This document shows positions 9,202 through 9,857 of a DNA stretch of 31,069 bases, in pieces. Below the pieces are notes generated by a model that was given only the letters and a program-made list of their open reading frames with translations, ran no database searches and was not told where the DNA came from. Each line of letters starts with the position of its first letter. Within the stretch, counting starts at the first letter, position 1. A program made the position numbers and the translations under genes. Source of the DNA: a virus (lineage: Duplodnaviria; Heunggongvirae; Uroviricota; Caudoviricetes); IMG/VR virus record IMGVR_UViG_2778261543_000009, positions 1 to 31,069 of that record; one strand, given 5' to 3'.

Positions 9202-9348
9202 TCACCACCATCGGATCTGCCCAACAAAATATCCAGACGCCAGAATCAGAAAGACCAACCAGATAAGTAAAAACTTCCAATTGGGAAATTTCTCGCCCAT
9301 AACTCGAATCTCAACTAGTAATTTATAAACAATGAAAAGAAACTTCAT
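9202..9348 (-). CDS. Small hydrophobic membrane peptide, tandem paralog B
   Basis: 48 aa from the ATG at 9348 (RBS AAGGGA), or 32 aa from the ATG at 9300: MGEKFPNWKFLLIWLVFLILASGYFVGQIRWW; single predicted transmembrane segment; a paralogous copy lies at 9468-9566. Confidence 0.35.
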   Translation of the reverse strand: MKFLFIVYKLLVEIRVMGEKFPNWKFLLIWLVFLILASGYFVGQIRWW

Positions 9349-9467
9349 ACAAATCCCTTTGTAACAATTACTTAACACCAAGTCATTCTATGCTTGAGTT
9401 CACGTAGCAAATCATCCATGAAGTAATTTGTTGTTTTTTCATTGCCATATGTAAAGTTATGTAAAAA

Positions 9468-9566
9468 TTACCGCCACCGGATCGCCTGAATCAAAGCGGA
9501 TAGTCCAAATAAGAAAAACACACACCATATCAACAGGAATTTCCAGTTGGGTAATCTTTCGCCCAT
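9468..9566 (-). CDS. Small hydrophobic membrane peptide, tandem paralog A
   Basis: 32 aa MGERLPNWKFLLIWCVFFLFGLSALIQAIRWR; RBS AAGGAG 9 nt upstream; the DNA around it (about 9488-9575) is a degenerate direct repeat of about 9240-9315. Confidence 0.35.
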   Translation of the reverse strand: MGERLPNWKFLLIWCVFFLFGLSALIQAIRWR

Positions 9567-9583
9567 TTCTCGTAACTCCTTTA

Positions 9584-9781
9584 TCAGTTTTTCAGGTAAA
9601 TCAATGTACCCGCCACTAATGCAGTACAAATGATCCAGGCAACAGGCGTAAGTATGTGACGAATCCCTCGGCATACCGCGATTATCCTCGCAGCCTTATC
9701 TGCTCCTTGCGGAGTGGTCTCAGCCTTAATCATCAAATCGTCTCCAAATTTATCTTTAGGTGCGCTAGAATTTGGCTGCAT
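9584..9781 (-). CDS. Small membrane protein with C-terminal transmembrane segment
   Basis: 65 aa from the ATG at 9781 (RBS GGAGAT), or 49 aa from the ATG at 9733; C-terminal hydrophobic stretch ILTPVAWIICTALVAGTLIYL; sits directly downstream of the conserved hairpin. Confidence 0.3.
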   Translation of the reverse strand: MQPNSSAPKDKFGDDLMIKAETTPQGADKAARIIAVCRGIRHILTPVAWIICTALVAGTLIYLKN

Positions 9782-9824
9782 GAGTAATCTCCATGCCATT
9801 TCAAATACTGTTCTGTTGATACAA

Positions 9825-9857
9825 AAAGCCCCGAACTGTTGCAGCAGCCGGGGCTTT
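9825..9857 (-). terminator. Conserved hairpin element E1, intrinsic terminator-like on the minus strand
   Basis: AAAGCCCCG ... CGGGGCTTT stem with loop AACTGTTGCAGCAGC; in the minus-strand RNA it is followed by UUUUUGU; 34 nt downstream of the V-like gene stop; near-identical to the element at 29727-29761. Confidence 0.5.

Follow-up and report, generated by a model that had tools for sequence, protein, structure and literature searches.

The stretch of DNA considered here, called the window throughout, comprises positions 1 to 31,069 (31,069 nucleotides, nt) of IMG/VR virus record IMGVR_UViG_2778261543_000009, and covers the greater part of the late region of a prophage that is lambdoid in its regulation and has a Mu-like tail; its relatives include phages Rac-SA53, phiP27 and phiSTEC1575-Stx2k. 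The late genes all lie on the minus strand, in the order of two holins, GH108 endolysin, slot 2, ParB-like gene, terminase and head genes, and tail genes, followed by the baseplate hub, a baseplate protein of 237 amino acids (aa), slot 1, a 115-aa protein, a plus-strand island with the antirepressor gene ant, baseplate J and the tail fibres. The two regions termed slots, namely slot 1 between the 237-aa baseplate gene and the 115-aa gene and slot 2 between the endolysin and the lipoprotein gene E, each contain one copy of a 33-nt hairpin, and behind the hairpin lie small open reading frames (ORFs) for membrane peptides, referred to below as its cargo (Table 1). Slot 2 is the counterpart of the R-Rz gap of lambdoid phages. 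The baseplate region of the window is 98.8% identical to E. coli W, whose copy of the prophage has a lambdoid early/late junction upstream, and the lysis region is 99.9% identical to a prophage in E. coli NZ_LR778147. Accessory DNA in the slots has 34-44% G+C versus about 51%, and the gap at slot 1 varies in length from ~250 bp in Rac-SA53 and 311 bp in TUM1881 to 697 bp in the window and 839 bp in STEC1575.

Table 1. Coordinates of the hairpins, cargo genes, flanking genes and predicted antisense elements in the window
Feature	Position	Strand	Remarks
Hairpin copy 1	9825-9857		AAAGCCCCGAACTGTTGCAGCAGCCGGGGCTTT; homologous unit ~9821-9870; covariance model 68 bits
Hairpin copy 2	29728-29760		AAAACCCCGGACTGTTCCAGCAGCCGGGGTTTT; homologous unit ~29724-29772; covariance model 73.7 bits
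Gene A	9584-9781	-	65 aa, MQPNSSAPKDKFGDDLMIKAETTPQGADKAARIIAVCRGIRHILTPVAWIICTALVAGTLIYLKN; C-terminal membrane helix; unannotated in RefSeq E. coli W
Gene B1	9468-9566	-	32 aa, MGERLPNWKFLLIWCVFFLFGLSALIQAIRWR; 5'-truncated paralogue of B2; AAGGAG ribosome-binding site
ORF C	9383-9448	-	21 codons, MAMKKQQITSWMICYVNSSIE; in the B1-B2 spacer; not hydrophobic
Gene B2	9202-9348	-	48 aa, MKFLFIVYKLLVEIRVMGEKFPNWKFLLIWLVFLILASGYFVGQIRWW; PHROG 6632 family (phrog_6632, E = 3.5e-21)
Gene D	29522-29695	-	57 aa; PHROG 4493/1115; C-terminal membrane helix ending RWW
Gene E	29338-29520	-	60-aa lipoprotein precursor, lipobox LVGC; PHROG 7528; constant last gene of slot 2 in this phage group
Predicted antisense promoter 1	9743-9771	+	TCCAAA (9743-9748), 17-nt spacer, TAGAAT (9766-9771); within codons 4-13 of A
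Predicted antisense promoter 2	29638-29667	+	TGGACA, 18-nt spacer, TATACT; 10/12 consensus positions; codons 10-19 of D; 60 nt from hairpin copy 2
Predicted sar-like cis-antisense RNA 1	9778-9866	+	~89 nt; 5' stem-loop with anti-Shine-Dalgarno UCUCC, spacer, terminator hairpin
Predicted sar-like cis-antisense RNA 2	29674-29768	+	~95 nt; fold -30.4 kcal/mol, z -4.9, two stem-loops
237-aa phage baseplate protein	9891-10604	-	upstream flank of slot 1; RefSeq annotation
115-aa conserved late protein	8847-9194	-	downstream flank of slot 1; PHROG 7986
ant (AntA/AntB antirepressor)	8302-8871	+	convergent to the late genes
Baseplate J	5953-7179		beyond the 115-aa gene
GH108 endolysin	29862-30428	-	upstream flank of slot 2; two holin genes before it

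Comparison of the two hairpins bears out most of what an earlier note on this DNA had reported of them. They differ at four of 33 positions, with the G-C pair formed by positions 4 and 30 in one copy replaced by A-T in the other such that pairing is kept, and with position 17 as the single difference in the loop; position 10 takes part in an A.C mismatch in one copy and a G-C pair in the other. Each lies downstream of a late-gene stop on the minus strand, as had also been noted, copy 1 being 33 nt past that of the 237-aa baseplate gene (at 9891) and copy 2 101 nt past that of the GH108 endolysin (at 29862). The coordinates given for copy 1 were exact, and the interval 29727-29761 given for copy 2 takes in one complementary A/T pair beyond each end of the hairpin proper. 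When the two loci are aligned together with their flanks, one of the checks that the note had proposed, a single significant segment of about 50 nt is recovered (9821-9870 versus 29724-29772; local alignment score 53 vs 21 +/- 2 in shuffles), and once the hairpin is masked there is no residual likeness except for TGGTGGTGA at the ends of two ORFs. A 25-nt degenerate core pattern, allowing up to three mismatches, matches the window twice (0 matches expected from 100 shuffles), and our covariance model finds no third copy of the hairpin in the window.

Examination of the secondary structure shows that hairpin copy 1 consists of an outer stem of 9 bp, an inner CTG/CAG helix of 3 bp and a loop of 6 nt. 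For copy 1 the folding energy is -21.6 kcal/mol (z -3.7) for the minus and -19.7 kcal/mol for the plus strand; copy 2 reaches -24.7 (z -6.0) and -23.5 kcal/mol (z -5.0), respectively. The z-scores over both sites and strands, ranging from -2.6 to -6.0, are those of a stable RNA stem-loop. On the minus strand the stem is followed by a U-run at both sites (CUUUUUGU at site 1 and UUUUUAGUUUU at site 2), which is the configuration of an intrinsic terminator, and on the plus strand a U-run (UUUUUGCU) follows it at site 2. Given the T-runs on both strands, the hairpin is predicted to be a bidirectional Rho-independent terminator; a simple terminator scanner with a loop limit of 8 nt had missed the full hairpin. 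Covariation was assessed over 66 distinct rows, in which 97% of the cells are paired as compared to 28-76% in slid controls; four of the 13 base pairs have changed on both sides (AU/GC, GC/AU and CG/UA), including a change of the inner CUG/CAG to UUG/CAA. The stem of the hairpin has clearly been under structural selection.

The sequence of the loop is variable. In some prophages with identical flanks and cargo, the 15-nt hairpin loop (window 9830-9852) is exactly inverted, with one additional substitution. Comparison of Rac-SA53 (locus L002, ~2172-2210) with another locus (L067) places the limits of the inversion at the 9-bp stem arms. The inverted loop prevails among slot-1 loci whose cargo is B, F or full-length B1, and every slot-2 locus has the orientation seen in the window. 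The inversion is likely to have arisen by a stem-mediated inversion or by template switching.

The distribution of the hairpin is narrow. A scan of IMG/VR with the exact core pattern recovered 67 loci, all 67 of which fall into only two contexts corresponding to the slots of the window: 1) baseplate gene, hairpin, small ORFs and 115-aa gene; 2) endolysin (GH108, M15, or M15 with a 93-aa gene), hairpin, small ORFs and lipoprotein E. It is present in 172 of 5426 complete E. coli genomes, where the four weakest matches, upon inspection, were all found to be post-endolysin. Scanning of GTDB with one genome per species produced just two matches, both unrelated (metagenome-assembled genomes of Mailhella and an Anaerolineae), and a blastn search of a phage collection with the hairpin returned only phiSTEC1575. 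Hence the search of related genomes for the 33-mer, which the earlier note had also called for, reveals an element restricted to two contexts and not a generic terminator. Around the unchanged hairpin the neighbors are freely recombined, with GH108, M15 or the 93-aa gene as upstream partners and D, D', H or A downstream, and the hairpin edge (query position 861) is the exact end point of many BLAST matches. The hairpin is confined to accessory slots and genes reassort on both its sides; we consider it very probable that this terminator-type hairpin constitutes the shared boundary of swappable cassettes.

The cargo of slot 1 in the window is more elaborate than the single small ORF after the hairpin that the earlier note had described: a small single-helix ORF is indeed present there, but the slot encodes three real ones (A, B1 and B2), none of which is annotated in RefSeq E. 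coli W. An internal ATG of gene A at 9733 would yield a 49-aa form; however, homologues of A, found in 32 clusters from E. coli and Salmonella, conserve the core KDKFGDDLMIKAETTPQGADKAAKIIAVCRGIRHILTP, which points to the 65-aa product starting at 9781. Two alleles of A (the window versus TUM1881, locus L004) are separated by 28-31 synonymous and only 3-4 non-synonymous differences, corresponding to a pN (non-synonymous) of 0.03 and a pS (synonymous) of 0.74-0.82. These substitution counts indicate very strong purifying selection on gene A. The TUM1881 protein is 96% identical to that of the window even as about three quarters of the synonymous sites differ; the DNA of the two is 95-100% identical from the baseplate gene via the hairpin, leader and promoter region up to ~9714, and 55-85% identical thereafter. 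This allele pattern is that of an old, strongly constrained coding core combined with a recombination breakpoint near 9714.

The genes B1 and B2 form a tandem pair of paralogues. Their similarity is significant (z = 14.8), and full-length versions of B1, with 45 aa, are seen elsewhere (L033). Within 9566-9600 (minus strand), the stop of A falls inside the region that codes for the N-terminus of the full-length B1 in L033 (AAACTGATAAAGGAG), and the A-B1 junction therefore appears to be a fusion at a microhomology by which B1 was shortened to 32 aa. ORF C, in the spacer between the two, is probably not a gene; its stretch is kept in STEC1575, merely as near-identical DNA. A homologue of B2 is annotated as rac58 in phage Rac-SA53. 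Beyond the combination A, B1 and B2, seen in the window and E. coli W, slot 1 is occupied by B only (Rac-SA53), A only (TUM1881), F, A', B1 and B2 (STEC1575), a variant of F (L026), or full-length B1 with a Rha/ant-type gene (L033). In STEC1575 (L003, ~2700-2740) and L026, a mini-ORF of six codons (ATGTTTGGAGGTCTTCCGTGA) precedes F, with its stop overlapping the GTG start of F; it could serve as a leader peptide for translational coupling.

Slot 2 shows a comparable variety: D in the window, and elsewhere D' with G, H with a truncated D, or A, either singly or after D'. In E. coli W the M15 endolysin is directly followed by E, the hairpin and D being absent as one indel of ~250 bp. Genome annotations of D mostly contain just a 37-aa form. 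In other lambdoid phages the position of E is taken by the Rz/Rz1 spanins (compare L005 3985-4167 and L080 820-1278); mature E is predicted to have only 29 residues, with two further cysteines, and no canonical spanin pair is seen in the lysis region of the window. We considered D and E as candidates for the spanins and rejected them: an i-spanin has an N-terminal helix and a long periplasmic domain and is paired with an outer-membrane lipoprotein, the o-spanin; E does have a lipobox, but the helix of D is C-terminal and the protein has 57 aa. D-family genes also coexist with a canonical Rz-type lysis protein (L080), and because of this coexistence with Rz/Rz1 they are not spanins.

Altogether, the genes downstream of the hairpin fall into six or more families, whose products have 32-65 aa and one membrane helix each, at the C-terminus; most of them are unannotated. 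The maximal Kyte-Doolittle hydropathy over 17 residues is 1.7-2.7 in A, B1, B2, D, D', F, G and H, such that all of these resemble the small single-helix peptides of type I toxins in this respect. B, D and E match PHROGs, in each case families without an assigned function, and nothing was found for A, B, D, E or F in Pfam, NCBIfam or PADLOC. By the sequence evidence, the cargo ORFs are real genes. With regard to the translational coupling to the next gene that the earlier note had proposed, the spacing is indeed close from D to E (TGAtATG) and from B2 to the 115-aa gene (7 nt), but A and B1 are separated by a gap of 17 nt with an AAGGAG ribosome-binding site.

One claim of the earlier note that fell was the by-eye resemblance of the peptides encoded by A and D (ETTPQGADKAARIIAV versus ETPASLDLTRAAAFAI): their Smith-Waterman score of 21 equals that of shuffled sequences (21.6 +/- 4.1; p ~0.5). 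Homology of A and D is likewise unsupported by homologue searches, in which A as query returns no D-like proteins and D only D-like proteins. The real, if weak, likeness of proteins across the two sites is that between B and D, which share a C-terminal motif of 14 residues, LxGxxxLxxxxRWW (p ~3e-4), and the codons for this motif double as a Shine-Dalgarno-like GGTGGTGA for the next gene.

The idea of a cassette survives the failure of the A-D match because both A and B are found in either slot as well as at other sites, and each has the hairpin in front of it wherever it is the first gene. For A this applies to all 17 IMG/VR loci in which no other gene of the slot precedes it, namely in slot 1, in slot 2 (behind M15 or behind the 93-aa gene) and at a Salmonella site that follows a tailspike/SASA gene; a separate look-up found it likewise hairpin-led in an int-alpA islet (L087/L088). 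At both the post-tailspike and the int-alpA islet sites the upstream gene has a terminator of its own, which directly precedes the family hairpin. For B, the hairpin is in front in slot 1 and, in 58 of 80 IMG/VR loci, between a SAR-type (signal-anchor-release) endolysin and Rz/Rz1. By tblastn, the gene B itself was further detected, mostly unannotated, in many Stx1a-, Stx2a- and Stx2c-converting (Shiga toxin) phages and in H-19B. All 78 of the D loci examined are hairpin-led. Moreover, three types of leader are common to both slots, of which 'TGTTTCTGACCTTGAATAAGGCAAGGAGAA' is found ahead of B and F in slot 1 and ahead of D' in slot 2, and 'CATGGAGATnAnTCATGCA' ahead of A in slot 1 and ahead of H in slot 2. 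The hairpin thus travels with its cargo. Of the earlier proposal of a duplicated cassette or hairpin-targeted insertion site, what stands is that the hairpin marks the upstream edge of a variable slot and forms one unit with the cargo; A and D are not duplicates, and site-specific insertion is unsupported, the slot boundaries fitting ordinary homologous and microhomology recombination. In one locus (L225, IMG/VR 2531839531_000010) the hairpin and leader of B are replaced by an unrelated sequence that resembles an insertion-element end and whose junction lies right ahead of the AAGGAG ribosome-binding site; such a locus would amount to a natural knock-out of the hairpin module.

The strand opposite to the cargo genes contains candidate promoters that face backwards, toward the hairpin. 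They were studied with a position weight matrix (PWM) promoter scan over 18 cassette types. Promoter 2 of the window is the only promoter-like site that the scanner reports between 28900 and 30500 on either strand. Antisense-strand PWM scores are 11.3-11.8 in the D family (p 0.01-0.075 across D variants), 11.5 in B (TCGAAT-17-TGcTAAAAT; p 0.045) and 10.6 in F (TTCACA-16-TAAAAT; p 0.08). The D loci contain indels and are of low diversity, so that SNP density among them does not bear on conservation of their promoter. Scores on the sense strand are lower (best 4.4-8.5), and no sense promoter was reported by the scanner between hairpin and cargo or in either region. Among seven lineages of A and H, a TAnnnT is found at a fixed position (TAGAAT, TATTAT, TAATCT, TAGGCT, TATTCT, TATCCT), with G at -14 in seven of seven and T at -15 in six of seven, while the residues encoded there vary (NSS, NNN, KIS, KPN, KNN, KIN, KDN). 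The A at -11 is supplied by the wobble T of ATT, CCT, AAT, TCT and GAT codons, for which the chance product calculated from codon usage is ~0.004.

Transcripts from these sites would start at the start codon of the cargo gene or up to 21 nt away from it, and the distances from promoter to hairpin predict RNAs of 70-125 nt for the various cassettes, with about 90 nt for those of the window. Folding predicts for them a stem-loop at the 5' end that a spacer separates from the terminator; in the sense mRNAs, a hairpin can form that conceals the ribosome-binding site and the AUG. Those hairpin variants that have no T-run on the sense strand keep the one on the antisense strand (L015, L082, L129). 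We put the existence of antisense RNAs complementary to the ribosome-binding site and start codon of A and D at roughly even odds.

The nearest known relative of this arrangement appears to be sar, the antisense RNA of phage P22 that acts on ant. Under permissive thresholds sar (RF00262) is the best Rfam match at slot 2 (29661-29764, plus strand), with 23.3 bits as against a gathering score of 43; at site 1 the sub-threshold match to it covers 9798-9861 of the plus strand with 16.6 bits, and relatives score 21.6-24.3 bits. No Rfam family reaches its gathering score in either hairpin region, and a match to the type I antitoxin ohsC (E = 8.5) was weak and was disregarded. Searched in the opposite direction, our own covariance model, built from 14 hairpin variants, found only one good match in 6 kb of P22 immI, namely the sar terminator on the sar strand (28.3 bits, E ~1.5e-4), with the other P22 terminators (ant and mnt) scoring 15 bits or less. 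The two systems agree in further respects: the sar terminator abuts the stop of the upstream gene, which is arc in P22 and the baseplate or endolysin gene here; an extended -10 promoter (TGcTATACT) in codons 3-4 of ant reads backwards, as the candidate promoters here would; the sar RNA, of ~69 nt, has two stem-loops and covers the ribosome-binding site of ant, as is predicted for the RNAs here; and the hairpins are identical at about 24 of 33 positions, including the loop motif ACTGTTnCnGCAG and the tail CUUyxxCUUUA. They differ in that the matches here stay below the Rfam threshold for sar (23 against 43 bits), in that the predicted targets in the window are the small membrane-protein genes A and D instead of ant, in the additional T-run of our hairpin on the sense strand, and in the body of the RNA, which is longer here and unrelated in sequence.

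In light of the above, we propose that the hairpin acts as the fixed front end of interchangeable cassettes for small membrane proteins in late-operon slots of lambdoid prophages of E. coli and Salmonella. On the antisense strand, transcription from a promoter of the sigma-70 or extended -10 type, situated within the opening codons of the leading cargo gene, would give rise to a short RNA that ends at the hairpin and is fully complementary to the ribosome-binding site and start codon of that gene, after the design of sar and ant in P22. In the lysogen, this RNA, the mRNA hairpin over the ribosome-binding site and start codon, and the sense terminator might together keep the peptide silent. Expression of the cargo would then need the heavy, antiterminated late transcription of lytic growth, for which this phage may use Q; its regulatory region lies outside the window. 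The hairpin module of ~50 bp and the conserved start of the next gene could also provide the homology for swapping cassettes between phages and slots. As to the peptides, our best guess is that they are membrane-active late proteins, possibly toxin-like in the manner of type I systems, which adjust lysis or block superinfection. The whole reading, with the terminator hairpin as front end and the sar-like RNA, has in our estimate about an even chance of being correct.

Several points weigh against the antisense part of this proposal. The evidence for the RNA consists of promoter-like motifs that are individually marginal (p 0.01-0.08), AT-rich N-terminal codons raise the rate of -10-like hexamers, and promoter 1 of the window has a weak -35 element and a PWM score of 6.7, which is not significant alone. 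The Rfam scores for sar (16.6-24.3 bits) are far under the gathering score, and in phages with the inverted loop the match follows the hairpin onto the sense strand; it therefore measures similarity of the hairpin only, and not of the rest of the RNA. The plus-strand U-tract is broken at site 1 (CUUUCGCUUUAU), and the covariation counts come from an alignment that was fitted to the model and is hence biased towards structure. Furthermore, at site 1 a simpler role on the plus strand would be to end the convergent ant transcript, and insulation alone could explain why a terminator is kept upstream of a toxic gene.

The main rival is accordingly a hairpin without any RNA product, which acts only as bidirectional terminator and recombination joint, with the promoter-like motifs as by-products of AT-rich codons; we regard this as a serious possibility, though one short of an even chance. 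It readily accommodates the T-runs on both strands of the stem, the mosaic breakpoints that coincide with the hairpin, the need of the convergent ant for a terminator at site 1, promoter scores that are marginal in each case and not significant for gene A of the window, and the established idea of linkers at lambdoid module boundaries. However, it leaves unexplained the second terminator before A where the upstream gene already has its own, the invariance of the key -10 positions and the G at -14 across variable codons in seven lineages, and the fact that the closest known match is the terminator of an antisense RNA with the same geometry; nor does it sit well with the variants mentioned above that lost the T-run on the sense strand and kept the antisense one. 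A narrower version of the explanation by antisense RNA would have the cassettes be type I toxin-antitoxin modules for prophage maintenance or abortive infection, with the small hydrophobic peptide as membrane toxin and the antisense RNA as its antitoxin. Prophage-borne type I systems are known, but type I toxins have promoters of their own and no sense promoter was found for any cargo gene, the genes reside in an essential late operon, together with which they are apparently transcribed, searches of PADLOC, Pfam and NCBIfam found nothing, and the most conserved part of A is not the helix but the soluble N-terminal 30 residues. These points make such modules unlikely, notwithstanding peptides of 32-65 aa with one membrane helix and basic N-terminal parts, a predicted antisense RNA over the translation start, a cargo mRNA that can sequester its ribosome-binding site and start codon, and an upstream terminator consistent with the prevention of leaky expression.

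The remaining two alternatives concern the origin of the hairpins. We consider it very improbable that a dedicated mobile element uses the hairpin as its target or end, by hairpin-directed site-specific insertion comparable to that at an integron attC site, the ends of IS200/IS605 insertion sequences (IS) or the repetitive extragenic palindromes and their associated transposases (REP/RAYT). Such an element would be expected to have one recombination hairpin per cassette and a dedicated recombinase, whereas a single hairpin per slot is seen ahead of one to four ORFs, and 33 nt is far shorter than attC; no integrase or transposase is linked to the hairpin in the contexts examined, where the sole IS seen disrupts the module (L225). 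The fact that cargo families unrelated to each other adjoin a single conserved hairpin, imperfect and with a bulged base, at several sites in genomes, and the inversion of the loop between otherwise identical loci, would be in keeping with a mobile element, but the 3' boundaries are ordinary conserved gene starts or microhomologies, and the leader and first codons are shared along with the hairpin, as homologous exchange predicts. That the two hairpins are independent terminators, alike by chance or convergence, is refuted. While GC-rich stems flanked by A and T are generic to intrinsic terminators, the identity at 29 of 33 bases takes in the loop and 0 matches are expected by chance, the likeness reaches 15 nt into the flank, other terminators in the window and in P22 score no more than 15 bits on the model as opposed to 68-74 bits for these two, and both sites have the same leaders and cargo families. 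On this point the earlier note was right in not regarding the two as independent terminators.

The proposed cassettes, with the hairpin as front end and a sar-like RNA on the opposite strand, can be placed beside several known systems. Susskind and Botstein in 1978 and Clark et al. in 2001 are said to have described conserved linker sequences at the module boundaries of lambdoid phages. These resemble the hairpin in being short conserved sequences at joints where the flanking modules reassort; the hairpin differs in that its structure is selected, in that it likely has a function of its own, and in that it recurs at non-homologous genome positions. Type I toxin-antitoxin systems (hok/sok, symE/symR, ibs/sib) share with the cassettes a small hydrophobic single-helix peptide, a cis-antisense RNA (predicted in our case) over the translation start with an intrinsic terminator, and a structured leader that hides the ribosome-binding site; in contrast to them, the cassettes lack a detectable toxin promoter, are embedded in a phage late operon and have no sequence kinship to the described families. 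The morons of lambdoid phages (Juhala et al. 2000), among them the superinfection-exclusion moron gp15 of HK97, located among tail genes, and the variable R-Rz gap, are similar as low-G+C accessory DNA between conserved late genes, with presence/absence and content polymorphism among relatives and small inner-membrane proteins as cargo. Whereas the classic order in a moron is promoter, gene and terminator, here the terminator lies upstream, no sense promoter was found and the cargo stops abut the start of the next gene; one hairpin module also leads cassettes at several slots.

A further parallel is provided by AgvB, AsxR and EcOnc03, convergent short small RNAs (sRNAs) at moron sites of lambdoid prophages of enterohaemorrhagic E. 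coli (EHEC; Tree et al. 2014, PMC4104026). Like the RNAs predicted here, they are antisense to the late operon at accessory sites and combine a conserved terminator part, of ~42 nt, with variable 5' parts; unlike them, they lie upstream of the lysis genes, have another terminator sequence (TTGCCCGAACCCAYTCGGGC) and act in trans as anti-sRNAs. The table of sRNAs from Hfq crosslinking and cDNA analysis (Hfq-CRAC) in EHEC Sakai lists five peaks in the prophage Sp15, none of them in the R-Rz gap, and Sp15 itself is without the hairpin. The Pas sRNAs are located elsewhere.

The cargo ORFs are mostly missing from RefSeq, yet at least one of them, A, is under very strong purifying selection. They are located in the late and lysis regions of prophages for Shiga toxin and the heat-labile enterotoxin LT-II, and the set offers testable candidates for effects of small proteins on lysis timing or phage exclusion. 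Were the antisense RNA real, the design of P22 sar, known for one gene, would become a recurrent portable regulatory module; it would explain the retention of terminators before cargo genes and offer a concrete mechanism for both the silencing in lysogens and the shuffling of accessory genes between non-homologous positions. If the hairpin is only a plain terminator, it amounts to a well-documented linker at mosaic joints, which is useful but unsurprising. More tentatively, and with greater doubt than belief, one may envisage an undescribed family of antisense-gated micro-protein cassettes, in which a sar-like RNA gene, made up of promoter, anti-ribosome-binding-site body and conserved terminator and fused to the first codons of the cargo, serves both as the switch that confines expression to antiterminated late transcription and as portable homology for the movement of cassettes between slots. 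Such a family would occupy slots in the R-Rz gap, the baseplate region and behind the tailspike of lambdoid prophages, including Stx- and LT-II-converting ones, with peptides that would be type-I-toxin-like effectors of lysis timing or superinfection exclusion.

Two observations concern the neighborhood of slot 1. Just upstream of ant, a full-length match to the Rfam family sRNA-Xcc1 (RF02221) is found at 8181-8265 on the plus strand, with 72 bits as against a gathering score of 53. Similar matches are seen in relatives (L002 998-1081, L003 982-1068, L026 296-380), and a leader that by eye has a similar structure precedes the ant gene in the R-Rz gap of Sakai Sp15; the motif resembles a 5' leader belonging to phage ant genes more than it does an independent sRNA. 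Furthermore, an ORF of 248 aa (7222-7968, minus strand) lies in very AT-rich DNA (31-34% G+C) that separates the 115-aa gene/ant island from baseplate J. Pfam gave only sub-threshold matches for it (LprI and GapR) and PADLOC none. This ORF represents another accessory island of the baseplate module, at which relatives carry hypothetical ORFs of 540 bp or 684 bp instead.

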